A DNA stretch of 64,000 nucleotides, from assembly GCA_963790405.1 (NCBI GenBank), contig CAWBOJ010000006.1:380858-444857 (forward strand), in the 5' to 3' direction. Positions within the stretch are counted from its first letter, which is position 1, and each line of letters starts with the position of its first letter. The DNA comes from an uncultured Actinomycetota bacterium. GTDB taxonomy: Bacteria; Actinomycetota; Coriobacteriia; Anaerosomatales; JAGXFU01. The notes below the pieces were generated by a model. That model did not search any database, had not been told where the DNA came from, and saw nothing but the letters and a program-made list of their open reading frames with translations. The translations under genes and the position numbers were made by a program. Below, in pieces: positions 8,660 through 63,596 of this stretch.

Positions 8660-8692
8660 CATACTGGTCATATGAACGAGCGCTCATATGAC
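8660..8692 (+). promoter_or_regulatory. ArsR/SmtB-type 12-2-12 operator overlapping the start codon of a probably leaderless transcript
   Basis: GTCATATGAACG-AG-CGCTCATATGAC at 8667-8692; extended -10 TGtCATACT ending 6 nt before ATG 8672. Confidence 0.8.
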
Positions 8693-9064
8693 ATCACCCG
8701 AGATGCCAAGTGTGAGACGACTGCGGTCGATTGTGAAATGGTCGCGCAGGTAGTCGCTGCTCTACCGCAGCAAGAACTCGCCGACGCGGTCGCCCGATTG
8801 TTCGATGCGTTGTCGGATCCGACGCGGTTGCGCGTTCTCAACGCCTTGGCCGTGAGTGAGCTGTGCGTGTGTGACCTTGCGGAGATTGCCGAGGTCAGCC
8901 AGTCAGGCGTGAGTCATCAGTTGCGCGTCTTGCGCGACCTGGATCTCGTTGCCTTTCGGCGCGAGGGACGTCGCGCGATATACCGGCTGGCCGACGAGCA
9001 CGTCAGAGCACTCGTGTCGGTTGCGACCGAACACGCGAACGAGCGGTTCGAGGGCGACCGATGA
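8672..9064 (+). CDS. ArsR/SmtB (CadC-like) metal-responsive repressor
   Basis: ALSDPTRLRVL, ELCVCDL, SQSGVSHQLRVL; N-terminal cysteines. Confidence 0.92.
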   Translation: MNERSYDITRDAKCETTAVDCEMVAQVVAALPQQELADAVARLFDALSDPTRLRVLNALAVSELCVCDLAEIAEVSQSGVSHQLRVLRDLDLVAFRREGRRAIYRLADEHVRALVSVATEHANERFEGDR

Positions 9065-11691
9065 ACCCTCACGAGGGATATGAACGCCTGCGCGTGCCCG
9101 TGCGTCTTCCTGCGGGGGAGGCATGCACGACGTGCATAGCGCGCTTTGACCAGGGAGTAGATGCGGTCGCAGGTGTCGGCTCGGTCGAGGTAGACCCCGG
9201 AGCGTCGGAGCTCGAGGTTGTCTACGATCCCTCCGTCATCACGCGCGAGCAGCTCGTTGCCCACATCGAGCGTCTTGGCCACGAAGTCGGTTCGGCCGTC
9301 GCTCACGTTTCGTGGCGGGTCGACGGTCTCGATTGCCCTGACTGCGCCAGAACCGTGGACGTGTCCGTGTCGCATCTCGACGGTGTCTTCTCGGCATCGC
9401 TCAACTTCGCCAGTGGCATGCTGTTCGTCGAATACGATTCAGCCGAAGATCCGCGTGCCGAGATCGAGCGATTCGTGGACGGCATGGGCTACGGCCTCGA
9501 GCGCGTGGGAGACACCGCCGGACGGCCGGTGGCAGAGTTTCGGGTCAGCGGGCTGGACTGCCCCGACTGTGCCAGAGTGCTCGCCGATCGGATTGCCGCG
9601 ATCGATGGGGTGGACAGCGCCGAGATGGAGTTCGCCACTGCCCGACTGAAAGTCGGCTACGACCCGGCGGTCGTTGCGCCGACGCAACTCGCCGATGCGA
9701 TCGTCATCGGGGGATACGGCGTCGAGGAACGTCCGATCCCGGGTACGGTCGCGACCTCGGGATCACGCGTTGGTCGCCGAGGGGACACGGCTACCTGGGT
9801 GAGCGGTGTGCTCATCGCACTGGGGTGGCTGCTCGAGTGGTTGCTCGGGCCTGCCGGTGATGCGCAGGTGTGGCGGACGGTCGTGTCCGTCGTGCCGTTC
9901 GCAATCGCGATTATCGTAGGCGGAGGCCTGATTTTCCGTCGTGCGGTTTCGTCTGCACGGGCTCGCATCTTAGACATGAACGTTCTCATGACCGTGGCGG
10001 TCATCGGCGCTGCACTGATTGGCGAGTGGGCCGAGGCGGCGATGGTCGTCTTCCTGTTCTCCGTTGGCGGGATGCTCGAGTCGCGCTCCCTCGAGCGCAC
10101 GCGTCGGTCGATCCGGGATCTCATGGACCTCGCGCCAGCCATCGCGCGGGTCGTGCGGGCCGGTGTCGAGAGCGAGATCTCGCCGACCGACGTTGCTGTC
10201 GGCGACCGCATCGCGATTCGGCCGGGCGAGCGGTTGCCGCTTGATGGCCGTATCGAGGAAGGCTCCTCGGCGATAGATGAGGCGGCCATCACCGGAGAGT
10301 CGGTGCCGGTCGACAAGGGGCCCGGCGACACGGTGTGGGCGGGGACGCTCAACACCTACGCGCCCCTGATCGTCGAAGTCACTGCGCCTGCCGAGGACAC
10401 AACGCTTGCTCGCGTCATCTTCCTCGTCGAGGAAGCCCAGGCTCAGCGCGCGCCGTTCCAGCGGCTTGTCGATCGGTTCACGCGGTGGTACACGCCTGCA
10501 GTGACTGTGACGGCGGGTCTTCTGGCGATCGGGCCGCCGCTCCTGGGTGCTCTTGCGCAGCCTGGGACGTTCGGCTTCGACACGTCGTTTGCGACGTGGT
10601 TCTACCGCGCACTGGTTCTGCTTGTTGTCGGCTGCCCGTGCGCGCTGGTGATCTCGACGCCGGTAGCCATCGTCTCGGCGATCACTCGCGCATCTCGCGA
10701 CGGTGTGCTCGTCAAAGGCGGCGCCTTCCTCGAGATGGCTCCGCGGATCCGCGCGCTGGCGTTCGACAAGACCGGTACGCTCACGCTGGGCCGCCCCGAT
10801 GTCGCCGAAGTGATCGCGCTCGACGGCATCGACGCCCCGACGGTGCTCGGGCTGGCCGGGACGCTGGAGCGCATGTCGACGCACCCTCTCGCCGGAGCCG
10901 TGGTGCGAGAGGCCGAACGAGCGGGGGAGAGCTTCTCGGCGAGTTCGAGCGATGTGCGTGAAACTCCGGGCCGTGGAGTGACCGGCGTGCTAGACGGTCA
11001 ACCGGCGGTCATCGGCAGCCTTGCCTTCGCCGAAGAGTCGGGATTCGCGGCGGACGGCGCACGCGCACACGTGGAACGGGTTGAGAATGATGGTCGCACC
11101 GCTCTGGCCCTGGGCTTGGGCGAGCGTGTCGTGGGTGTGATAGCGGTCGCGGACATGCCCCGCGAGAGCGCTGCGGGCGTGATCGAGCGGCTGCGAGGCA
11201 CGGGGCTGGACGCAATCACCATGCTCACCGGGGACAACGAGCGCGTTGCGGGCGCGATCGCGCAGCGTATGGGCCTGGACAGCTTCGATGCCCGGCTGTT
11301 GCCTGCGCAGAAGGTGGATGCTGTGCGTGCGCTCAAGGAACGCTACGGTGCCGTGGCGATGGTCGGAGACGGGATCAACGACGCGCCGGCGCTGGCGATG
11401 GCGGATCTTGGGATCGCGATGGGAGCGGCGGGCAGCGACACAGCGCTCGAGACTGCGGATATCGCGCTCATGTCTGACGATCTGAACGCGTTGCCGCGCT
11501 TCTTCGAGCTGGGACGACGCACGGTGGCGAACATCCGGCAGAACGTCGTGATCTCGGTCGTCATCAAGCTGATCGTGCTCGTGGCGGCGGTTCTCGGCTT
11601 CGCACCACTGTGGCTGGCGGTGTTCGCCGATACGGGTGTCGCGTTGCTCGTCATCCTCAACGGTTTGCGACTCCTGCGGCCGGTCTCGTGA
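9061..11691 (+). CDS. Heavy-metal P1B-2 ATPase (Zn/Cd/Pb type) with three N-terminal HMA domains
   Basis: CTTC, CPDC, CPDC; TGES, CPC, DKTGT, GDGINDAP; Lys in TM7 and ADTG in TM8. Confidence 0.93.
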   Translation: MNPHEGYERLRVPVRLPAGEACTTCIARFDQGVDAVAGVGSVEVDPGASELEVVYDPSVITREQLVAHIERLGHEVGSAVAHVSWRVDGLDCPDCARTVDVSVSHLDGVFSASLNFASGMLFVEYDSAEDPRAEIERFVDGMGYGLERVGDTAGRPVAEFRVSGLDCPDCARVLADRIAAIDGVDSAEMEFATARLKVGYDPAVVAPTQLADAIVIGGYGVEERPIPGTVATSGSRVGRRGDTATWVSGVLIALGWLLEWLLGPAGDAQVWRTVVSVVPFAIAIIVGGGLIFRRAVSSARARILDMNVLMTVAVIGAALIGEWAEAAMVVFLFSVGGMLESRSLERTRRSIRDLMDLAPAIARVVRAGVESEISPTDVAVGDRIAIRPGERLPLDGRIEEGSSAIDEAAITGESVPVDKGPGDTVWAGTLNTYAPLIVEVTAPAEDTTLARVIFLVEEAQAQRAPFQRLVDRFTRWYTPAVTVTAGLLAIGPPLLGALAQPGTFGFDTSFATWFYRALVLLVVGCPCALVISTPVAIVSAITRASRDGVLVKGGAFLEMAPRIRALAFDKTGTLTLGRPDVAEVIALDGIDAPTVLGLAGTLERMSTHPLAGAVVREAERAGESFSASSSDVRETPGRGVTGVLDGQPAVIGSLAFAEESGFAADGARAHVERVENDGRTALALGLGERVVGVIAVADMPRESAAGVIERLRGTGLDAITMLTGDNERVAGAIAQRMGLDSFDARLLPAQKVDAVRALKERYGAVAMVGDGINDAPALAMADLGIAMGAAGSDTALETADIALMSDDLNALPRFFELGRRTVANIRQNVVISVVIKLIVLVAAVLGFAPLWLAVFADTGVALLVILNGLRLLRPVS

Positions 11692-52437: not shown

Positions 52438-52725
52438 CGGAATCTGGTTGTCGTGACCGAGCGCCGTTCGCCGGAGCCAGAAGTACCGTTCTCGGAGCAG
52501 TACTGCCGTTCGGGTGCGATGTCGTCAGCGAGTTCACGCATTTCGTCACCACGAGCTATACTGATGCATCACGCACGCCGATGAACTAGACGTCGGAGGC
52601 AGAGCGAAGCATCCCGCACGGCGGCGATTGGCCGGACGAGCGGCCGCAGCGAATGCGGCACGAAGGTTGCTTCCTCATGAGGGAACCGCACTGCGCGCAA
52701 GCGCTCGTCTTTGAAGGGCCGATCA

Positions 52726-53445
52726 GTGAGCGATATCTGGAGCAAGGCCGATCTCCACATCCATAGCACCCATAGCGACGGGTTGGCCAGGATTCCGGAG
52801 ATCATGGACTACGTCCAGGATCAGACCGATCTGAAGGTCGTCGCGATTACTGATCACAACACCATCGAGGGCGCTCTGTTCGCGAAGTCGCTCGAAGAGA
52901 TGTATGACTTCGAGGTTGTTGTCGGCGAAGAGGTGTCATCCAAGTCCGGTCACGTGATCGGACTCTTCCTTGAAGAGTCGATTCCTTCAGGACTGTCTGT
53001 TGCCGAGACTATCGCGCGTATCAACGAGCAGGGTGGGGTAGCCATCATTCCTCACCCATTTTCCAACCAGGGTGTGTTCGGTCCGTTCGGAGTGAACACG
53101 TTCGGTGCTGCGTTCAACGAGCTTGCATTCCATGCACTTGAGGTCTACAACTCAATGCCGTTCCTCGTGTGGGCCAACCGTGTGGCTGCCAAGGTCTTCG
53201 CCGGTGGGCAAGGGCTTGCGGCGACCGGCGGCTCCGATGCGCATGTGCTTCAGGGAATCGGGAAGGGCTACACAGTGTTTCGCGGCACGTCTGTAGAGGA
53301 TCTGCGGCGTAGTCTCGACAACTTCGAGACACGGGCAGAAACCGGGCACGGTGGTCTGAGCCTGATGCTGCGCTATGCGTTCCGTTTCCCGCAGATTCGT
53401 CGACAGCAGGCCTGGAACTGGGAGCGCTGCAAAGCCGTCAAGTAG
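52726..53445 (+). CDS. PHP-domain phosphoesterase
   Basis: DLHIHSTHSDG, ITDHN, GEEV, PHPF, GGSDAH. Confidence 0.9.
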   Translation: MSDIWSKADLHIHSTHSDGLARIPEIMDYVQDQTDLKVVAITDHNTIEGALFAKSLEEMYDFEVVVGEEVSSKSGHVIGLFLEESIPSGLSVAETIARINEQGGVAIIPHPFSNQGVFGPFGVNTFGAAFNELAFHALEVYNSMPFLVWANRVAAKVFAGGQGLAATGGSDAHVLQGIGKGYTVFRGTSVEDLRRSLDNFETRAETGHGGLSLMLRYAFRFPQIRRQQAWNWERCKAVK

Positions 53446-53484
53446 CGTCGGTGTCCTTCCGACCGCTCGGCCCTGTCGGAGTAT

Positions 53485-54708
53485 CTAGCCAAGTTCGCGA
53501 GCTGTCGCTTTCAGTTGCTTGGCGAGCAGACCTGCGACTCTGGGGTTGTCGCCCCAAGCACCGATCGTGACCGTCGAGACGTGTGCTTCGACGCGTGCCT
53601 GCCTGATGGACACCTGCATGTCGATGATGGTCACGGAACTCTCGAACGGGAAGCAGGCGGGGCATACCAGCACGCGGCTACATCCGAGTGCTGCGAGGTG
53701 CCGGACCGTCTCGGTGATGTCCGGATTTCTCCATTCCGCGTAGCACAAGCGGACGTTCTGCTGAGGTAAGCCGCGGTCTATCAGGATGGACCGCACGCGA
53801 TTGGCGAACGAGTTCTCTTGAACATCGAAAGAGGTGTGGCTCTTCTGCCAGGCATCGGGCTGTCCATGCAGCGTTAGTGCTACACCCGTGTGCTCCGGGA
53901 CATCTCGAGCCTGCCAGACGAGGTCGGAGACGTGCTCGCACAACTCGGCAGATCCCCAAAGGGGCGGGGTGTAGCTGAGCCGAAGCCCGTGTGACTCAGG
54001 TCTCAAGGAGTCCACCGCAGCCTTGGCGCGATCCATGGCGTAGGACTCACCGACAGCCAGCGTCGCGACGACGATGTTGCGGAAGCCATCCTGCGCTGCC
54101 TGAACAACTACTCGATCTAGAGTGTCGCGGCCGACGCCCGATACGAAACGGACTGCACCGAAGTCCTTGCCGAGCTCAGATTCGACGTTCTCAGACAATG
54201 CTCGTGCTTGACGTGCAGCCGGGCTGGTGCCGCCGAGTGCGCGATACCGTGCCTTCTGCGCGGCATACAGAAATGGTGCGATGCCCAGTGTTGCTTCAGG
54301 CAGACCCGCTGCAGCGAGGCGTTCCAGCTCCTGTGCGATAGCGGATGGCCTGTAGTGCTCCGGTTCGATCTGAGCGACGATGAGCGCCAATGGACCCGAG
54401 ACGGTGTCATCGAACGTGTCGGGCAGTTCGGGGGTGCTGCGTCGGGCGGCAAGGTAGGGGAGCAGTGCTGAGGCGAGCGCGTAGCCACCGCCGACAGAGC
54501 CGACCGAGAGGCCCAGAGCGGCAAGCGTCACGTTTGCCTGGCCGTAGGCGTCTACGACTTCGATGATTCCCCACGCTCCACCGACTATTCCCGCTATGGC
54601 CAAGAAGAGGAGCAGGGGTTCTCGTCCCCGTGATACCACCAGCAGGCCTACGACCGATGTGCCGACCGTTAGCCCACCTATGAAGATGGTGCCCCACTCG
54701 ATTGTCAT
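53485..54708 (-). CDS. Membrane-anchored ferrochelatase/class II chelatase-like protein
   Basis: Three N-terminal TM helices; RYRALGGTSP, LTLHGQP, C-terminal PDITETV...VLVCPACF. Confidence 0.7.
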   Translation of the reverse strand: MTIEWGTIFIGGLTVGTSVVGLLVVSRGREPLLLFLAIAGIVGGAWGIIEVVDAYGQANVTLAALGLSVGSVGGGYALASALLPYLAARRSTPELPDTFDDTVSGPLALIVAQIEPEHYRPSAIAQELERLAAAGLPEATLGIAPFLYAAQKARYRALGGTSPAARQARALSENVESELGKDFGAVRFVSGVGRDTLDRVVVQAAQDGFRNIVVATLAVGESYAMDRAKAAVDSLRPESHGLRLSYTPPLWGSAELCEHVSDLVWQARDVPEHTGVALTLHGQPDAWQKSHTSFDVQENSFANRVRSILIDRGLPQQNVRLCYAEWRNPDITETVRHLAALGCSRVLVCPACFPFESSVTIIDMQVSIRQARVEAHVSTVTIGAWGDNPRVAGLLAKQLKATARELG

Positions 54709-54775: not shown

Positions 54776-54804
54776 TTGACTACTAATACCCCAGGGGGTA
54801 TACT
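54776..54804 (+). promoter_or_regulatory. trxA promoter with CsoR/CstR-type operator
   Basis: TTGACT-17 nt-TATACT; ATACCCC-AG-GGGGTAT at 54786-54801. Confidence 0.85.
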
Positions 54805-54852
54805 AGCCCGTGAAATGACAAGCGTGGTTTGTCGCTATAGGGAGGAAGTCCG

Positions 54853-55173
54853 ATGAGTACAGCAGTGAAAGACGTATCGACCTCTGAGTTCACTTCGGAG
54901 GTTCTGGACGCAACCGTTCCCGTTGTGGTCGACTTCTGGGCACCGTGGTGCGGTCCGTGTCGTGTGGTAGGTCCCGAAGTCGAGAAACTTGCGGATCGCA
55001 TGAACGACAGCGCTAAGTTCGTGAAGGTGAACGTGGACGACAACCGTGACATCGCAATGAAGTACGGCATCATGAGCATTCCGACTATTGCGAAGTTCGA
55101 GCGAGGAAACATGATCACCCAAGTGGTTGGGGCACGCGGTGCCGATGCGCTAGCCTCGGAACTCGGGCTGTAG
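54853..55173 (+). CDS. trxA: Thioredoxin
   Basis: DFWAPWCGPC, MSIPT; GGAGG RBS. Confidence 0.96.
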   Translation: MSTAVKDVSTSEFTSEVLDATVPVVVDFWAPWCGPCRVVGPEVEKLADRMNDSAKFVKVNVDDNRDIAMKYGIMSIPTIAKFERGNMITQVVGARGADALASELGL

Positions 55174-55183
55174 GCTGGTATCA

Positions 55184-55399
55184 TTGCCTACGTACGAACT
55201 GACTTGCCAGGCTTGTGGTGAGCGCTTCGACCGATTCTTCACCAGGTTGCTTCGCGAAGAGGACAAGGTGTGTCCGGTTTGCGGGTCCACACAGGTGAAG
55301 TGCGGTTTCGGGGGAGGTATCCTTGGCAAGGGAACGAGCGCCGGTGTCGGTGCCGTGCCCGCCGCCTCGTGCGGGACAGGGGGCTTCACTTGAGGCTAG
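55184..55399 (+). CDS. FmdB-family zinc-ribbon protein; possible Sec at TGA 55391 (ends at 55393 if UGA is stop)
   Basis: MPTYE..CQAC..CPVC; ends CGTGGFT-TGA-GGC-TAG with a downstream hairpin. Confidence 0.85.
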
Positions 55400-55433
55400 C
55401 CCGCGTCTGGCCAGACGTCCGAGGGAGTTGTCG

Positions 55434-55808
55434 GTGGACTACGCGTACAAGCGGGTAGGCACTGAGGGATTCGAATCTACGATCGAGGCCGTGGAGCGCT
55501 CTGTGCGCGACCACGGCTTCGTCATACAGCAGTTTCACGATATCAGCGCCCGGTTGGCTTCGAAGGGCTTCCCGATCCGGCCGCTCGTGATCTTCGAGAT
55601 CGCCTTGGCGGACGGTGATTCGGACGAAATGGTCTCGCTACTCATGCCGTGCAGGATCAACGTCTACGAAGAGGGCGACAGTGTCGTCGTCGCTGCGCTT
55701 CGGCCCAGCCTGTTCAAGGCGGTGTTTCCGGAGCACGAGCTCGATGCAGTTGCGCAGAGAGTAGAGGCGAGCGTGATCGATGTCGTAGACAGCGCTGTCA
55801 GCGGGTAG
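55434..55808 (+). CDS. DUF302-family protein
   Basis: HGFVI...DISARLASKG, LLMPCRINVYE, ALRP. Confidence 0.75.
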   Translation: MDYAYKRVGTEGFESTIEAVERSVRDHGFVIQQFHDISARLASKGFPIRPLVIFEIALADGDSDEMVSLLMPCRINVYEEGDSVVVAALRPSLFKAVFPEHELDAVAQRVEASVIDVVDSAVSG

Positions 55809-55853
55809 ACGGCAGACGCACGGCAGGGTCGATGCACCCGCGTTGGAGTCTGG

Positions 55854-56441
55854 CTACAGGACGCATGCCGAGTATCTCAGGAAGACAGCGATAGCCTCAT
55901 CGACTAGCTCGTCTCGCGTCTGTGCACGGTCATCGATGAGACATTCCTTCATCGAGTGCCCGAGAATGGCCAGTCCAACGTCTCCGATGGTTGAGGTAGC
56001 TCGCGACAGTCCCTTGAGGATAGCGTCGCATTCAGCACCTTCTTCCATCCGTTCCTGGATGTCACGGAGTTCAGCTTCCAGGCCGCCGAGTCGCGATATC
56101 ATCTCCGCGCTGTCTCCCGGAGAGATGCTGCTGGGATCAGGCGTCGACGTCGATAGGTTCCTATACCGGATGAAGACTTCGAATGCTTCCTGGATCACGC
56201 TATCCCGTCCGGTTTCGGCTCCGCCGGCCAGGCATGTCTTCATCGAGTAACCGATGATGCGCATTCCCACCTGCGTTAGCGCCGACTTGGCCGCGAGCAC
56301 TTGCGTCAGAATCGCCTGACAGTCCTTGTCGGAGCCGATCATCGTCTGAAGTCCGCGCACCTGACCCTCGAGCCGTTTGAGGCGGTTCACGATGCGGCGC
56401 CGTTCCGACTCGACTGTTATGGCATCCATGCGCTCGGGCAT
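55854..56441 (-). CDS. Tandem CsoR/CstR-family repressor (two repeats)
   Basis: Repeat 1 NRLKRLEGQVRG..DKDC..SMKTC; repeat 2 SRLGGLEAE..GAEC..SMKEC; GAGGAG RBS. Confidence 0.85.
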   Translation of the reverse strand: MPERMDAITVESERRRIVNRLKRLEGQVRGLQTMIGSDKDCQAILTQVLAAKSALTQVGMRIIGYSMKTCLAGGAETGRDSVIQEAFEVFIRYRNLSTSTPDPSSISPGDSAEMISRLGGLEAELRDIQERMEEGAECDAILKGLSRATSTIGDVGLAILGHSMKECLIDDRAQTRDELVDEAIAVFLRYSACVL

Positions 56442-56493
56442 AGCTTCTCCTCGATGGTGTTGCGATATCATTGTGCGGTACGTCTGTCGAAAA

Positions 56494-56512
56494 TATACCC
56501 CCTGGGGGTATA
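56494..56512. promoter_or_regulatory. CsoR/CstR-type operator between the divergent repressor and CDF genes
   Basis: Perfect palindrome TATACCCCC-T-GGGGGTATA. Confidence 0.88.
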
Positions 56513-56533
56513 ACGTGCAAGCGCGGGGATGGT

Positions 56534-57481
56534 ATGAGCCCAAACACTGAAACGGTATCCGCCTACTCCACTCCGCCGAGGATCAAGCAGATCAGGCGGG
56601 TTCTGTGGGTCGTTCTATTCCTCAACCTCATTGTGGCGATCGCCAAGATGGGTTGGGGCTACTTCTCCGGCTCGGTGGCCATGCAGGCCGACGGGTTCCA
56701 TTCTCTGTTCGACGGAACCTCGAACGTAGTCGGGCTCATCGGCATCGGTATGGCTGCTCGGCCTCCAGACAAGGACCACCCCTACGGTCATGCGAAGTAC
56801 GAGACCTACGCCTCGCTTGCCATCGGGGCGATGCTCGCCTTGGCGGCCTACAACGTGGGAAGCAGTGCCGTTCGGGAGTTGATGGCGGGTGCAGAACCTC
56901 CGCGCGTCGACATGATTTCGTTCGCTGTCATGCTTGGGACGCTCGCAGTCAACTTGACCGTGACTACGTATGAGCGTCGGGTTGGGAAGCGCATTGGCAG
57001 CGAGATCTTGATTGCGGACGCATCCCACACGTTCAGCGACATCTGGGTAAGCCTGGGCGTTATCGTCGGACTGGTCGCCGTCAAACTCGGCTACCCACAA
57101 GCCGACCCGCTCATCGCCGTGCTCGTAGCATTCGCCATCGCTTTCACGGCGTGGCATGTGTTCAAGCAAGCCAACGCGACGCTTTCTGACACGGCACGCA
57201 TCCCGCCGGTTGACGTGTGTGCCCGCGCCCGCGCGGTTGAGGGCGTACTGGGTTGTCATCACGTGCGGACACGCGGTACTGAGGCTGAGGTCTACGTCGA
57301 CCTTCACGTTCAGGTCGATCCGTCTTTGAGCGTCGAGGAGGGTCATCGCATCAGCACCGAGGTGGAGAATGTCGTGTGTGCTGCCTTCGATGCTGCAGTC
57401 GATGTTGTGGTTCATCTCGAACCGTACGATTCCTACGAGGCTTCGAAGACCGCCGAGGAGATCAATGCAGGACTTGCCTAG
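56534..57481 (+). CDS. Cation diffusion facilitator (FieF-like)
   Basis: ADGFHSLFD, PPDKDHPYGHAKYE, ADASHTFSD, VVHLEP. Confidence 0.93.
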   Translation: MSPNTETVSAYSTPPRIKQIRRVLWVVLFLNLIVAIAKMGWGYFSGSVAMQADGFHSLFDGTSNVVGLIGIGMAARPPDKDHPYGHAKYETYASLAIGAMLALAAYNVGSSAVRELMAGAEPPRVDMISFAVMLGTLAVNLTVTTYERRVGKRIGSEILIADASHTFSDIWVSLGVIVGLVAVKLGYPQADPLIAVLVAFAIAFTAWHVFKQANATLSDTARIPPVDVCARARAVEGVLGCHHVRTRGTEAEVYVDLHVQVDPSLSVEEGHRISTEVENVVCAAFDAAVDVVVHLEPYDSYEASKTAEEINAGLA

Positions 57482-58445
57482 GGCTGACGGGTCGCAGGAA
57501 TCATGGAAAGGATACGCACTCGCTGCTCTTGCGGCCGTCTTCTGGGCGACCGGCGGTCTGACTGCGAAGTGGCTGTTCAGCCCGATAGATGCTACGACGT
57601 CGGCGTGGCCGTTCCCTCCGCCCGGGCTCGAGGTTGATCCGCTTGTTCTCGCAGGCGCTCGTGCCCTCACAGCCGCGCTGATCCTGTTGGTGTACGTGGC
57701 TATCGCCAAGCCAGCCGCACTTCGTATCCGTCTTCGGGATGTGCCATTTCTCGCTCTGTTCGGCACAGTTGCATTGGCTGGAGTTCACGCGGCCTACTTC
57801 CTGGCGATTTCACACACCAACGTTGCCACTGCGGTGCTGCTCGAGTACCTGGCGCCCGTCATCGTGCTGGGCTTCTCCGTCGTTTTCTTGGGCGAGCGAA
57901 TGACCTGGGCCCTGCCGGTCGGGGTGGCTTTGTCTATTGGCGGTTGCGCGCTTGTTGTGGGAGTCGCGGGGGGAGCGGAGCTTGCGGTCACGTCGGCGGG
58001 TCTGGCGTGGGGTCTTGCAGCCGCTGGCTTCTTTGCCTTCTACCAGCTTCTCGGAAAATGGGCTGTTCCCCGATACTCGCCCTGGACGCTGCTCACGTAC
58101 GGGCTTCTCGCGGCGTCTGTGTTCTGGATCGTGTATCTTGGCGGTTTCGCCGAGATGCGCGCTCTGATGATAGAGCCTGCCGGAGGTGCAGCAGTGGTCT
58201 ACATTGCTGTCGCCTCCACGATTATTCCCTTCGGTGCTTCGCTGAAGGCCCTTCACTACATCGATGCGACAAAGGCGGTCGTCACATCCACTCTTGAGCC
58301 CGTGCTCGCAGGCATCGCGGGTTGGGTGGTGCTGGCCGAGATGTTCGACGCGTGGCAGGTGCTCGGCGGAGTGCTGGTTCTGGCTGCTATCGTGGTCGTG
58401 CAGCGGTCGGATCGTCGCGGCCTTGCGATTCCACCCGGAGTCTAG
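57465..58445 (+). CDS. EamA/DMT-family transporter
   Basis: About 10 TM helices; LEYLAPV, LGER, LEPV. Confidence 0.88.
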   Translation: MQDLPRADGSQESWKGYALAALAAVFWATGGLTAKWLFSPIDATTSAWPFPPPGLEVDPLVLAGARALTAALILLVYVAIAKPAALRIRLRDVPFLALFGTVALAGVHAAYFLAISHTNVATAVLLEYLAPVIVLGFSVVFLGERMTWALPVGVALSIGGCALVVGVAGGAELAVTSAGLAWGLAAAGFFAFYQLLGKWAVPRYSPWTLLTYGLLAASVFWIVYLGGFAEMRALMIEPAGGAAVVYIAVASTIIPFGASLKALHYIDATKAVVTSTLEPVLAGIAGWVVLAEMFDAWQVLGGVLVLAAIVVVQRSDRRGLAIPPGV

Positions 58446-58556: not shown

Positions 58557-59957
58557 GTGGAGCTCATACAGCGGCCCGATCTCAAACAGAAGATCACGCT
58601 CTCGCCGCAGGTTTACCAGGGACTCAGCATTCTTGCGATGCCCGTCGCCGAACTCCAACAGCTTGTTGAGGCGGAGCTTCTGGAGAATCCCATGCTCGAG
58701 GTCGAAGAGCCGGAAAATGACGAAGAGCCGGCGGACGAGTACGAAGAGCGCGAGAACTCCGAGGAAGAGGATCGGGCCTGGGACGATTGGCTCGACATGT
58801 ACGACGAACTCGAGTCTTCGGAGACGACGGGGCCACGCGATCCGAATGAGGAAGCTGCAAACACCGAGGACTTTGTTGGCGGTATCCAGACGTTCGATGC
58901 GTACTTGATCGAGCAGATCGGCTTGCTGGATATCCCATCCGAAGTCTCCCGGGCTGCGCGCGCGATCATCGGGTTTCTCGACCGCGACGGCTTCTTTGCT
59001 GGCGAGTGTACAGAGGTCGCCGCGGTGGCAGATGTGGATGTTGAGACGGCCGAGCAGGCTCTGCGGGTCGTGCAGCAGTTGGATCCGCCAGGTGTCGGTG
59101 CGCGGACTCTCACCGAGGCATTGCGCATCCAGATGGAATACCTGGGCATGGACGAGCCGGTCCTGGACATGATCGTCGAGAGCCACATGAGCGATGTCGC
59201 CGCGAACCACTATCGCAAGATCGCTCGAGCGCTGCGCGTGGATGAAGATGAGATCAGGCGCGTCGTTGAGTTACTCAAGACTCTCAATCCGCGACCGGCG
59301 GGCGCATTCTCGCCCGGCCCCTCGCCCGGATACATCGTTCCCGATGTGACACTCCGCCGCTTCGACGCCGATTGGCTGATCATCCCCAACAACGAGGCGG
59401 TTCCGACTCTTCGGGTCAGCCCTCGCTACCGAGCAATGCTCAGATCGGGCTCGACGGCCGACGACGACACGAGACGGTATCTGAAGGACAAGATTCGATC
59501 GGCGGAGAGCTTCATCCGCAATGTGGATCGACGCAAGGACACGGTAAGTCGCATCGCGGAGATCATCTTGGACGTTCAATCGGAGTTCTTCGAGGACGGG
59601 AAGGGTTTGCTCCGTCCGCTGCGGCTCGAGGATGTGGCTGTTGAGATCGGCGTGCATCTATCGACGGTGAGCCGTGGGGTCACCGGAAAGTACATGGCGA
59701 CTCCCTACGGGCTGTTCGAGTTGAAGCACTTCTTCTCGGGAGGCTACCGGACGCGAACGGGCACCGACGTCGCTTCCACAAGCATCAAGCAGCGACTCAA
59801 GGAGATCGTCGGTGACGAGAGTCTGGAAAAGCCCTGGTCCGATCAGAAACTTGCCGAGCTGCTGTCGGACGAGGGAGTCACGGTAGCTCGTAGAACTGTG
59901 GCCAAGTATCGCGAGGAGCTGGGAATCGCTCCTTCGTGGGCACGGAGACGCCGATGA
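58557..59957 (+). CDS. rpoN: RNA polymerase sigma-54 factor
   Basis: ELLENPMLE, DPPGVGAR, HLSTVSR, RpoN box ARRTVAKYRE. Confidence 0.96.
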   Translation: MELIQRPDLKQKITLSPQVYQGLSILAMPVAELQQLVEAELLENPMLEVEEPENDEEPADEYEERENSEEEDRAWDDWLDMYDELESSETTGPRDPNEEAANTEDFVGGIQTFDAYLIEQIGLLDIPSEVSRAARAIIGFLDRDGFFAGECTEVAAVADVDVETAEQALRVVQQLDPPGVGARTLTEALRIQMEYLGMDEPVLDMIVESHMSDVAANHYRKIARALRVDEDEIRRVVELLKTLNPRPAGAFSPGPSPGYIVPDVTLRRFDADWLIIPNNEAVPTLRVSPRYRAMLRSGSTADDDTRRYLKDKIRSAESFIRNVDRRKDTVSRIAEIILDVQSEFFEDGKGLLRPLRLEDVAVEIGVHLSTVSRGVTGKYMATPYGLFELKHFFSGGYRTRTGTDVASTSIKQRLKEIVGDESLEKPWSDQKLAELLSDEGVTVARRTVAKYREELGIAPSWARRRR

Positions 59958-61476
59958 GCGAGACGGATCGCGATATTGAGCAAGCGAATCCTCGGCGAAT
60001 GACGTACACGCGTACGGCACGGCAGGTGCTCACGATCGCGGGGATGCTCATCGCGGTCACGGTACTCCATCTGTACGCGAACTCCTTCGGGCAGGTTGAC
60101 TGGCTGCATCTGCTGTATCGACGGCTCTACTACGTGCCAATCCTGTATGCGGCCTTCATCTTTGGAAAACGCGGCGGATTCCTTACGGCGGTAGCCGCGT
60201 CGATGCCCTTCGCTATGTACGCCCACATGTCACTCGGCGGGCTCTTCGGCGATCATGTCGACAATCTGCTTGAGATCGTCATGTACTTCGCCGTGGGTGT
60301 TCTGTTCGGTGCGCTTCATGACATGGAGGAGCGCAAGACTCGTGACTTGCGTCAGGTGTCCGTGCGCCTCGAAGATGCGTATCGCAAGCTTGAGGAGCGC
60401 GCGATTCAGCTCATCAACATTCAGGACTATACGCAGTCCATCTTGCGCTCGATCACGTCCGGCGTCCTGACGGTTGGACCGGATGGCTCCGTGACGACGG
60501 TGAATCCTGCTGCAGAACGCATGTTGGGCGTCAACGAGTACGACATCGTTCCTCGGCCAATAGGCGCGATTCTCTCCGACGACGGTGGACTTAGCACTGA
60601 CATGGACAAGGTGCTGTCGGGCCGGTTGCCGCTGTCGCTGCGCGAGGTAACGATCGTGACGCGCGACATGCGAACGATACACGTGCAGGCTTCGACATCG
60701 CGCATGAGAGCGGTCGGAGGACGAATCCTCGGCGCGGTGGTGACGCTGGAAGACGTGTCCGAGATCAAGGCGCTCACCGAGCAACTCATACGCGCCGATA
60801 GGCTTGCAGCGATGGGGGAACTCACGGCTGGGGTGGCTCACGAGGTGCGCAACCCTTTGGGAGTCATCCGGGCCACCGTACAGCTGCTCGAAGATGCTCG
60901 CGGTGACAGAACGCGTACAAAGGAGGCGGCCGATGTCATCAAACAAGAGATCGACCGCCTGGACAGAGTGATCAAAGCGCTTCTCGATTTCGGGCGTCCG
61001 AGTAGCCCCACGTTCGTCCATACGGACGTGGAGGATGTGCTGCACGACGTGCTGCTGTTCACGGGTCGGTTCGCCAAGCAGGCGGACGTGAGGATAGTCG
61101 AGAAGCTGAAGGGCGGACTGCCGCCGGTGACCGCGGATCCCGATCAGCTCAAGCAGGTAGTGCTGAACCTTGTCACCAACGCCGTTCAGGCCATGGAAGA
61201 CGGCGGGGGTACCATCACTCTAGAGACCGACACAGACGGGGATTTCGTTCATATCTCGGTTGGCGACACGGGCCCGGGTATTCCGGCGTCCAGCATCGGC
61301 AAAGTCTTCGACCCGTTCTTCTCCACAAGAGATGACGGGACCGGTCTCGGTCTGACGATCGTGCACAGGATCATCGACCAGCACGACGGACACATTGAAG
61401 TGGGAAGCGGCCCGGAGGGTACGGTATTCAGAGTCTCACTTCCGGCGGTCTTGGATGAACAGGCGGAGGGCACCGA

Positions 61477-61480
<4 letters not shown>
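59954..61480 (+). CDS. Membrane-bound PAS sensor histidine kinase
   Basis: N-terminal TM region (LHLLYRRLYYVPI), PAS, AHEVRNPL, NLVTNA, DTGPG, GTGLGL. Confidence 0.93.
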
Positions 61481-62826
<1,346 letters not shown>

Positions 62827-63377: not shown

Positions 63378-63596
63378 ATGGCCGAGACACAGACGACGCT
63401 CAAAACGACCGGTATGCATTGCAGGTCATGCTCGATGCTCGTGGACATGACCGTCGGCGAGCTTGAGGGCGTCGAGAGCGTTGAAACCGACCACGTCAGT
63501 GGGGACACGAAGGTGTCGTATGACCTGGAGAAGGTCTCCGTTGACGACATAGTGTCAGCAATCAGATCAGCTGGCTACGACGTCGACCAAGCGTAG
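63378..63596 (+). CDS. CopZ-like HMA metal chaperone
   Basis: GMHCRSC, 72 aa, C-terminal AGY. Confidence 0.9.
   Translation: MAETQTTLKTTGMHCRSCSMLVDMTVGELEGVESVETDHVSGDTKVSYDLEKVSVDDIVSAIRSAGYDVDQA

Follow-up and report, generated by a model that had tools for sequence, protein, structure and literature searches.

A fused two-domain CsoR-family repressor and a candidate reductive sulfur/selenium regulon in the Anaerosomatales

A 64-kb stretch of DNA (64,000 nucleotides, referred to below as the window) from an uncultured actinobacterium of the order Anaerosomatales encodes a CsoR/RcnR-family repressor in which two domains, D1 and D2, are fused in a single chain. Two C/G-tract palindromes flank the repressor gene: operator O1 lies in the promoter of a thioredoxin (Trx) operon, trx-fmdB-DUF302, and operator O2 between the repressor gene and the divergent CDF-eamA exporter genes. 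Operators, promoter placement, conservation, gene content and residue pattern were computed. It is very probable that the tandem repressor controls these units through these sites. An earlier, sequence-only reading of the window had proposed that the local repressor controls all three units, and each part of this proposal held at the level of comparative genomics. Its linking of thiol-redox proteins with a metal exporter also held, but this was the least constant part (CDF at 15 of 20 loci). For the system as a whole we favor, with some reservation, a CstR-like thiol switch with a thiol-reactive, non-metal effector that governs a reductive sulfur/selenium relay. The trigger is probably reactive sulfur rather than a metal.

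Operators and promoters of the repressor locus

The first operator, O1 (ATACCCCAGGGGGTAT at 54786-54801), fills the spacer of the TTGACT-17-TATACT promoter ahead of trx-fmdB-DUF302 and abuts the -10 element, an arrangement noticed in the sequence-only reading and borne out by the promoter scan and the pattern counts. It was the sole match to ATACCCCNNGGGGTAT at two or fewer mismatches, with 0.01 expected. The pattern TACCCCN{0,4}GGGGTA matched the window at two places only, 54787-54800 and 56496-56510; again 0.01 was expected, and two matches were reached in 0 of 100 shuffles. The second match belongs to O2 (TATACCCCCTGGGGGTATA at 56494-56512), which was found where it had been read: the repressor (minus strand, start at 56441) and the CDF gene (start at 56534) are separated by 92 nt, and O2 lies within this gap. 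Read on the minus strand, O2 fills the spacer of TTGCAC-17-TATATT, the promoter of the repressor, and TTGC-type -35 and TATATT-type -10 elements recur at the repressor gene in relatives. O2 ends 21 nt before the ATG of the CDF gene and the CDF transcript therefore starts at or upstream of O2.

Both operators fit the type-2 CsoR operator, TAC-N8/9-GTA with C/G tracts, and agree with both the TAC/GTA dyad rule and the CsoR consensus of streptomycetes, ATATACCCCTNAGGGGTATAT (PMC3902906; this and the other articles given by number are cited from excerpts). The locus thus has the C/G-tract pseudopalindromic operator with a TAC/GTA dyad adjoining the gene that is a feature of the CsoR/RcnR family, and the earlier description of the sites as CsoR-type palindromes agrees with the published operator type. 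The two cores differ by 1 nt, as had been noted. In the 20 relatives described below, the repressor-side site has a 15-nt core in 18, and every one of the 17 trx-side sites found has a 14-nt core. Because these lengths recur in relatives, the difference is a conserved feature and not a homopolymer or assembly slip.

Conservation across the order

Sixty-one genomes of the same order, including the own genome, were searched and a repressor match was found in 57. The tandem form, recognized as one match across both domains, was present in 9 of the 61, the own genome again included. Most of the remaining genomes have a single-domain orthologue of about 100 residues, its N-terminal part D1-like and its C-terminal part D2-like. 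In a tree of the halves and the single-domain proteins, the D1 halves of seven tandems formed one clade (100/97) and their D2 halves another (100/99), which fits an origin of the tandem by one duplication. The protein of genome G019, whose branches are long, may represent a second duplication.

The surroundings of the repressor, about 12 kb, were then compared in 20 relatives (8 tandem, 12 single) from many families of the order by tblastn with the window proteins. The gene order PHP, chelatase-like, trx, fmdB, DUF302, repressor, CDF, eamA, rpoN was found in synteny in 20 of 20 relatives; the counts for each gene are given in Table 1. At least one TACCC-N-GGGTA site was present at all 20 loci, with sites on each side of the repressor at 15. 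The neighbourhood comparison that had been suggested as a check on the sequence-only reading thus showed both gene order and operators to be kept. Promoter context, defined as a TTG-type -35 element, the operator in the spacer and a TAnnnT -10 element overlapping the operator end, was seen at 89 of 95 sites in relatives, these being the sites of the repressor loci together with those of the rhodanese-Trx and CxxxxU loci described below. At random positions the same context occurred 13 times in 20000.

Architecture and sensing residues of the repressor

The repressor scored 108.6 bits against PF02583, for which the cut-off is 22.8. The sequence-only reading had named a separate canonical CsoR as the explanation that would speak against it. 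The own genome (G000; a draft of 2.49 Mb in 8 contigs, 85% complete) was therefore searched as a whole with PF02583, and only the two domains of this gene were returned (77.3 and 38.6 bits); no second CsoR-family gene was found in the 85% complete sequence. A gap-free alignment of D1 with D2 over 77 residues shows 38% identity and places Cys opposite Cys.

The AlphaFold2 model of the repressor, built with the tandem alignment, has six helices (2 x 3) with a mean predicted local distance difference test score (pLDDT) of 84 and a predicted template modeling score (pTM) of 0.80. In Foldseek each half matched CsoR, InrS and CstR chains (TM-score on the target, TMt, 0.64-0.73; probability 0.96-1.00), so that the three-helix protomer fold of the CsoR/RcnR family is present in both halves. 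With the whole model, Foldseek gave no match at E <= 0.001, only half-length CsoR-type matches. In the ESM Atlas only single-domain PF02583 clusters were seen (scores 0.84), a lead rather than evidence on tandem forms. Members of the family are typically homotetramers of protomers of about 90-100 residues; the chain here has 195 residues in two domains. Two three-helix CsoR protomers fused in this way should, according to the model, form an intramolecular pseudo-dimer, and two such chains should rebuild the usual tetramer-like disc.

Residue conservation was evaluated in an alignment of 46 tandem-length metagenomic homologues. C41, C138 and C167 are invariant in all 46 and C70 is present in 45, and both Cys are kept in all 12 single-domain orthologues read. 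In the HMMER alignment to Geobacillus CsoR, C41 and C70 face the Cu(I)-ligand Cys residues (positions X and Z), and Ser66, as well as Ser163 of the second domain, faces the ligand His (position Y); D2 thus repeats the sensing pattern of D1 with C138, S163 and C167. Position Y is occupied by Ser, Ala or Thr in D1 and by Ser or Ala in D2, each in 45 of 46 sequences; the exception has Arg, and no sequence has His (0 of 46). The pattern is therefore the x-C-x-C of CstR, two conserved Cys with no His ligand, and not the x-C-H-C of Cu(I) CsoR, in which a His stands four residues before the Z Cys. Nor was the H-C-H-H or H-C-H-C pattern of RcnR and InrS found, which includes an N-terminal His (the N-terminus reads MPERMD and Y is Ser), or the P-C-H-x pattern of FrmR, since Pro2 is present but the N-termini of orthologues vary and Y is not His. 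Other potential ligands are frequent without being fixed: a His at -5 from the Z Cys in D2 (38 of 46), a His at -9 in D1 (42 of 46) and a third Cys near the C-terminus (37 of 46). The two His residues vary among the 12 single-domain orthologues, and some orthologues, those of the f19 family among them, have lost the His residues and the C-terminal Cys but still have the operators.

The two domains differ in the first helix. The alpha-1 motif N-R-L-x-R-L-x-G-Q-x-R-G is invariant in D1 (N19, R20, L21, R23, G26, Q27, R29 and G30 in 46 of 46 tandems) and contains the RLXR element (R20-L21-x-R23), which carries DNA binding in S. lividans CsoR as shown by mutagenesis (PMC3902906). Of the D2 motif only two Leu survive; RLXR is lost, reading RLGG here, and the corresponding positions 117 and 120 are Arg in 14 of 46 sequences each. 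With RLXR kept only in D1 and Cys in both domains, the chain has two sensing sites and one DNA-reading helix.

Regulon members beyond the window

A genome-wide operator scan, also suggested earlier as a check, returned 5 strict sites in the own genome and 0 for a reversed control pattern. A looser pattern gave 10 sites, and two further sites were obtained when one mismatch was allowed and promoter context was required. Besides O1 and O2, four sites combine a TTG-type -35 element with a TAnnnT -10 element that overlaps the operator, two of them being one-mismatch sites. The site at C3:247187 precedes the gene of a membrane-anchored rhodanese-thioredoxin, and that at C6:24933 precedes a small ferredoxin-like gene followed by a gene for a thioredoxin-fold protein with a CxxxxU motif, where U is selenocysteine (Sec). 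The corresponding operator (TACCC-N2-6-GGGTA) was found upstream of rhodanese-Trx(Sec) at 29 of 30 loci and upstream of the fdx/CxxxxU operon at 30 of 30. One of the one-mismatch sites, C6:445049 (TTGCCG-17-TATACT), precedes ccdA about 190 nt past the end of the window. The other, C6:490900, is followed 22 nt on by a second one-mismatch site (C6:490900-490960; TTGACC...TATCTT) and lies before the gene of a FAD-linked oxidase, which may be a further member of the regulon.

Three perfect sites lack strict promoter context. They lie at C3:156848, before an SBF/ACR3-like transporter gene divergent from an HlyD-like gene; at C3:356174 (L002 1501-1514), between a SLOG/TIGR00725 gene and a small open reading frame (74-97 residues, Cys-rich, with no family match); and at C6:357881, before nadE. 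The SBF transporter reaches 46 bits, the cut-off for a true ACR3 being 283. Compared with the intact orthologues of relative G002, the SBF transporter (C3 ~156238-156246) and nadE (C6 358563-359052) shift frame, and there is no long homopolymer at the first of these breaks, that in the transporter; the shifts are either pseudogenes or indel errors of the draft assembly. The site at C3:580610, within the hypF coding sequence (IPPGV), was taken as chance; those at C5:44150 and C6:545968, which have no promoter context, and at C17:79285 of G002, within an EF-G-like gene, were judged chance or unclear.

Five relatives were scanned whole and had 5 to 9 ATACCC-N2-5-GGGTAT sites each, the reversed control giving 0. 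The operator is hence sharp enough for regulon prediction genome by genome. An operator was found at ccdA in G021, G048 and G050, and at both nadE and the SBF transporter in G002, G050 and the own genome. Genome G020 has a lone small CxxC...CxxC FmdB-like zinc ribbon (L146; identified by eye) behind an operator of its own and an operator before a small membrane protein, YgaP-like by eye, and G050 has operators before a methyltransferase and a NifX-like protein.

The copA/copZ control expected of a Cu(I) CsoR was not seen: no operator, even at one mismatch, was found at a copA-like gene (C2, ~327-330 kb) that encodes three HMA domains. In the window, an ArsR/SmtB-type regulator (ELCVCDL motif) stands directly ahead of a P1B-type ATPase (8672-11691 for the pair). 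The ATPase (9061-11691) has a CPC motif and three HMA domains, and the pair forms a metal-efflux unit of its own with no CsoR operator.

Selenoproteins in the regulon

Two operator-controlled genes encode putative selenoproteins, and the genome encodes tRNA-Sec, selD and selB. The thioredoxin motif of the rhodanese-Trx reads W-TGA-P-S-C (W-U-P-S-C). Its gene was matched in 60 of 61 genomes, and a single in-frame TGA is present in 30 of the 30 loci kept. A 6-bp hairpin resembling a selenocysteine insertion sequence (SECIS) downstream of the TGA is common to 18 sequences, with compensatory changes at two pairs (in 7 and 1 sequences). The second gene, matched in 57 of 61 genomes with an in-frame TGA in all 57, has the motif C-x-S-G-G-U-G-P-S, here C-Y-S-G-G-TGA-G-P-S. 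An 8-bp hairpin 13-31 nt downstream of its TGA was found in 26 sequences and is invariant even at synonymous positions. The CxxxxU protein had no NCBIfam match and in Pfam only DUF1462, under the cut-off; going by its sequence, it may be an undescribed selenoprotein family. An assignment to ArsD was rejected, there being no Pfam ArsD match and a PDB ArsD match of E = 0.16.

These two proteins and ccdA support the sulfur/selenium label that the sequence-only reading had attached to the regulon. A published list of prokaryotic selenoproteins includes members of the FmdB family as well as rhodanese/DsbD fusions, TsoB (PMC13188914). The selD gene (G000:C3:683229-684143) itself has one in-frame TGA, so that selenophosphate synthetase is a selenoprotein too, and selB and tRNA-Sec lie within 11 kb of it.

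Genes of the locus and their neighbours

Genes of the window were identified by Pfam profile matches with NCBIfam as an addition (Table 1), which confirmed the earlier calls of thioredoxin, zinc-ribbon protein, DUF302, tandem repressor, CDF and EamA. The eamA start overlaps the CDF stop by 17 nt. When the CDF protein was aligned with Shewanella YiiP, H-x3-D in transmembrane helix 2 faced D-x3-D and H-x3-D in helix 5 faced H-x3-D. We take these positions to be the transport-site residues, and the H-D/H-D pattern presumably fits Zn/Co/Cd-type CDFs. The best NCBIfam match of the protein is the Zn-type model (245 bits, cut-off 460), that to DmeF being 36 bits.

A PHP-domain protein and the chelatase-like protein (52711-54708) adjoin the trx promoter in every one of the 20 relatives compared. 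The chelatase-like gene and trx diverge from a shared 144-nt region that contains O1, and the chelatase-like gene may therefore be co-regulated. On the other side, the genes after rpoN encode a sensor kinase with a PAS domain and a sigma-54 activator of NtrC type (58557-62826 for all three).

Table 1. Features of the repressor locus and of further genes discussed. Positions are those of the window unless a G000 or L coordinate is given; the last column counts the relatives' loci, out of 20, with a tblastn match.
Feature	Position	Strand	Evidence or remark	Loci of 20
PHP				20
Membrane-anchored CbiX/ferrochelatase-like protein	53485-54708	-	flanks trx side	20
Sigma-70-type promoter TTGACT-17-TATACT of trx-fmdB-DUF302	54776..54804	+	promoter scan, 10/12 matches	
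Operator O1 ATACCCCAGGGGGTAT, 14-nt core TAC-N8-GTA	54786..54801		pattern search	
Thioredoxin (WCGPC), 106 aa	54853..55173	+	PF00085, 6.8e-29	16 (one a 34-aa partial match)
FmdB-family zinc-ribbon protein, 69 aa, Cys in C-terminal tail	55184..55393	+	PF09723 (Zn_ribbon_8) 3.5e-11; TIGR02605 8.1e-10	12
DUF302 protein, 124 aa, GTG start chosen by us	55434..55808	+	PF03625, 25.1 bits, cut-off 23	14
Tandem CsoR/RcnR-family repressor, single chain, 195 aa	55854..56441	-	PF02583 (Trns_repr_metal), two stretches, 2.1e-31	20
Repressor domain 2 (D2)	55854-56150	-		
Repressor domain 1 (D1)	56151-56441	-		
Promoter of the repressor, TTGCAC-17-TATATT	56492..56520	-	own regular expression; under promoter-scan threshold	
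Operator O2 TATACCCCCTGGGGGTATA, 15-nt core TAC-N9-GTA, common to the divergent repressor and CDF-eamA units	56494..56512			
CDF-family cation exporter, 315 aa	56534..57481	+	PF01545 (Cation_efflux) 1.7e-44; PF16916 (ZT_dimer)	15
EamA/DMT-family transporter, 326 aa	57465..58445	+	PF00892, two stretches, 1.1e-36	18
rpoN (sigma-54)	58557-59957		flanks eamA side	20
CopZ-like HMA protein	63378-63596			
Membrane-anchored protein, cupredoxin-like by eye	63641 onwards, off window end		then ccdA (to G000:C6:445855)	
Rhodanese-thioredoxin, membrane-anchored	G000:C3:247233-247931; L058 834-1532		Sec at first CxxC position	
CxxxxU thioredoxin-fold protein, 113 aa	G000:C6:24307-24645; L059 505-846	-		

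Proposed mechanism and alternative explanations

The DNA binding, oligomeric state, effector and relay direction that we infer would combine as follows. The reduced repressor would bind type-2 operators (5'-TAC-N8/9-GTA-3' around C and G tracts), which lie within the spacer and overlap the -10 element, so that bound repressor would keep RNA polymerase off. Binding at O1 would control trx-fmdB-DUF302, and binding at O2 would control the repressor gene and divergent CDF-eamA; the 15-nt autoregulatory and 14-nt target sites may differ in affinity. Each sensing site would combine the X Cys of one domain with the Z Cys of the other, giving the pairs C41-C167 and C138-C70. The Cu(I)-ligand His is missing, and covalent thiol chemistry as in CstR is therefore the most likely trigger. 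A persulfide or polysulfide would bridge C41-C167 and/or C138-C70 as a di-, tri- or tetrasulfide and cause release from DNA; an oxidant or selenite would be a less likely trigger. Derepression would then provide cytoplasmic thioredoxin and CcdA, the latter carrying reducing power across the membrane, and in the last step of the relay the anchored rhodanese-Trx(Sec) would handle persulfide or polysulfide. The CxxxxU protein with its ferredoxin-like partner and the exporters would be derepressed as well. Zinc released from oxidized thiolate sites could explain the presence of the CDF exporter.

Several observations weigh against this thiol-switch mechanism. The CDF protein has an H-D/H-D site, and its role in a sulfur response is not explained. 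Among solved structures, HMMER placed Cu(I) CsoR (2.8e-11) and Ni InrS (1.6e-10) ahead of CstR (8.7e-9), and the best NCBIfam model is RicR (66 bits, cut-off 175). The wedge Asn of the x-C-N-C pattern, which in S. pneumoniae CstR (7MQ1) faces the Y position, is absent. A site for a soft metal or metalloid could be built from the frequent His residues at -5 and -9 together with the C-terminal Cys. The ccdA gene lies directly after the CopZ-like gene and the gene read by eye as cupredoxin-like. Persulfide dioxygenase, sulfide:quinone oxidoreductase and CoA persulfide reductase were not seen beside any operator, the genome as a whole not having been searched for them. The packing of the pseudo-dimer comes from one AlphaFold2 model, base-level accuracy of the draft genome is not assured given the two frameshifts, and a search of sequencing runs listed one DNA run, with 0.08 of the words, and matched no RNA data for this organism.

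The possibility was considered that the repressor is a sensor of soft metals or metalloids (Cu(I), Zn/Cd or As(III)/Sb(III)), with a thiolate-rich site made of the two Cys, the nearby His and the C-terminal Cys, and that metal releases the repressor to induce CDF and thiol-repair proteins. The CDF exporter with its H-D/H-D site, the nearest solved sequences and NCBIfam model, the frequent additional ligands and the CopZ-like neighbour of ccdA are all in its favor, as are an operator type identical to that of the Cu-sensing S. lividans CsoR and the SBF/ACR3-like transporter in the regulon. However, both domains have Ser, Ala or Thr in place of the Cu(I)-ligand His, there is no N-terminal His such as RcnR or InrS would need, and the additional His and Cys are lost in some orthologues that retain the operators (the f19 family). 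Moreover, the copA-like gene has no operator at one mismatch, the P1B ATPase in the window has its own ArsR-type regulator, and the transporter falls far short of the score for a true ACR3. The CDF gene is missing at 5 of 20 loci, whereas the Trx-type and Sec-protein targets are nearly constant. A metal sensor is thus unlikely, if still a serious contender.

A selenium-status sensor was also considered, in which a Cys-S-Se-S-Cys bridge derived from selenite or selenide would tune selenoproteins and their Cys-based partners to selenium supply or toxicity. The two operator-controlled selenoprotein genes, with the TGA kept at 30 of 30 rhodanese-Trx loci and in 57 of 57 CxxxxU genomes, the SECIS-like hairpins in both genes and the tRNA-Sec, selD and selB genes would suit such a sensor, and selenite and tellurite reportedly form mixed trisulfides with CstR, going by the title alone of a 2013 report by Luebke and colleagues. 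However, no operator was found near selD, selB or tRNA-Sec (C3:683-694 kb) in the looser and one-mismatch genome scans, and most regulon members are not selenoproteins. At the sequence level nothing separates selenium from sulfur chemistry, and we regard this explanation as improbable.

An FrmR-like aldehyde sensor, in which Pro2 and the X Cys would be joined by a methylene bridge, might be suggested by the Met-Pro start of the protein and a partial match to the NCBIfam FrmR model (43 bits, cut-off 133). It is very improbable: the N-termini are not conserved among orthologues, the N-terminal stretch is longer, with 39 residues from Pro2 to C41, P-C-H-x lacks its His and no formaldehyde dehydrogenase was seen at any operator. 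An origin of the palindromes by chance or assembly error, with the tandem gene as a misassembled duplication, can be practically dismissed: the draft does consist of 8 contigs with apparent frameshifts in the SBF transporter and nadE, but the artefact is already contradicted by the conservation data, because independent assemblies from across the order repeat the sites with their lengths, 9 of 61 genomes and 46 tandem-length metagenomic proteins have the tandem form, and the two domains are only 38% identical.

A more far-reaching version of the thiol switch, which we consider a long shot, is that the repressor is a natural single-chain CsoR and an obligate asymmetric sensor, whose D2 gave up DNA reading and kept its Cys, and that it responds to sulfane sulfur or selenium and coordinates a transmembrane reductive relay from Trx through CcdA to rhodanese-Trx(Sec), plus the CxxxxU selenoprotein. 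If true, this would be the first case in bacteria of a selenoprotein regulon under a known transcription factor, and the first of a CsoR that senses redox state or chalcogens outside the oxidative CstR paradigm. A review (PMC11672702) states that no CsoR-family sensor specific to reactive oxygen species has been characterized. CsoR-family sensors have been studied as symmetric tetramers of identical small protomers, and how one fold discriminates copper from persulfide, as well as the cause of the unequal reactivity of the two sides of a CstR dimer, are open in the field (PMC8643695, PMC11672702). The natural fusion would supply a genetic, hence testable, asymmetry, with both sensing sites and one DNA-reading helix per predicted pseudo-dimer.

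Comparison with known systems

The repressor family, the operator type and the thiol-switch chemistry are already known. Not found in print were a fused architecture whose second DNA-reading helix is degenerate, a constant reductive regulon that includes two selenoproteins, and a 14/15-nt split in operator length. Literature searches, including PF02583/DUF156, returned no tandem or fused CsoR, and the words 'tandem' and 'fused' are absent from PMC8643695, its supplements aside.

The Cu(I) sensor CsoR of S. lividans (match 2e-9) has the same type-2 operator, TAC-N9-GTA, with autoregulation and an alpha-1 RLXR. In contrast, the repressor described here has no Cu(I)-ligand His and no copZA targets, copA has no operator and RLXR is found in D1 only. 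RcnR-type regulators are also paired with CDF exporters, as in DmeR-DmeF. The likeness lies in a CsoR/RcnR-family repressor divergent from a CDF exporter gene; however, the H-C-H-H metal site is absent here and the CDF protein is nearer to the Zn-type model than to DmeF.

Control of sulfur metabolism rather than metal efflux by a CsoR-family protein has a precedent in TTHA1953, a CsoR-like protein that regulates the Sox pathway in Thermus thermophilus (PMC10318464). As described there, it is a single-domain protein with oxidative Sox targets in an aerobe. DUF302 genes have been reported within sox clusters of sulfur oxidizers (PMC5037610).

In the literature, x-C-x-C marks the persulfide sensors of CstR type, and large uncharacterized actinomycete x-C-x-C clusters without the wedge Asn have sulfur-detoxification neighbours (PMC8643695, PMC11672702). 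These clusters (S. coelicolor 'CstR', M. tuberculosis Rv1766; sequence similarity network cluster 3 of Fakhoury et al. 2021) have two Cys and no wedge Asn like the repressor here, the likeness being one of description; their gene neighbourhood differs from the present one, which is constant across a separate order. One named relative was confirmed, in Cryobacterium sp. Y57, by a contig scan that used over-specific peptide patterns. The Y57 homologue is 44% identical over 57 residues and has the x-C-x-C pattern and the (S/A)MKEC motif in common. Its cluster (L007, NZ_PJJL01000055.1, 3300-8300) contains TauE, rhodanese-YgaP_TM, a gene combining metallo-beta-lactamase with two rhodanese domains and a lipoprotein-like rhodanese, and four 14-nt operator-like TACC-N-GGTA sites where 0.17 are expected. 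By its gene content it is a textbook CstR-like cluster and fits the actinomycete x-C-x-C picture.

For the proposed relay the closest counterpart is TsoB (NF045694), in which a rhodanese, a DsbD/CcdA membrane part and a thioredoxin-like Sec part are joined in one protein (PMC13188914, in excerpt). Here these parts are the separate co-regulated genes of rhodanese-Trx(Sec) and CcdA. They match the TsoB model weakly (30 and 64 bits, cut-off 805), matches that link the parts functionally. The Sec motif of TsoB is UxxxxU, that of the rhodanese-Trx here UxxC. In S. aureus, thioredoxin-like proteins reduce protein persulfides (PMC6196236).

CstR (S. aureus, S. pneumoniae, E. faecalis) has the same fold (repressor TMt 0.66-0.69 to 7MQ1-3) and shares the x-C-x-C pattern without the Cu(I) His, a rhodanese-type sulfurtransferase in the regulon and the C/G-tract operator. 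It differs in the wedge Asn at the Y position, which is Ser, Ala or Thr here, and from the fused two-domain chain of this genome. Furthermore, the CstR regulon is oxidative, whereas the regulon here is reductive, with thioredoxins, CcdA and selenoproteins in addition to the CDF and EamA exporters. Such a regulon, comprising thioredoxins, CcdA, rhodanese and two conserved selenoproteins, with no copper pump and no oxidative sulfide-detoxification enzymes at the operators, is unusual for the CsoR family. The lineage is a candidate for a thiol-stress response of reductive, anaerobic type.

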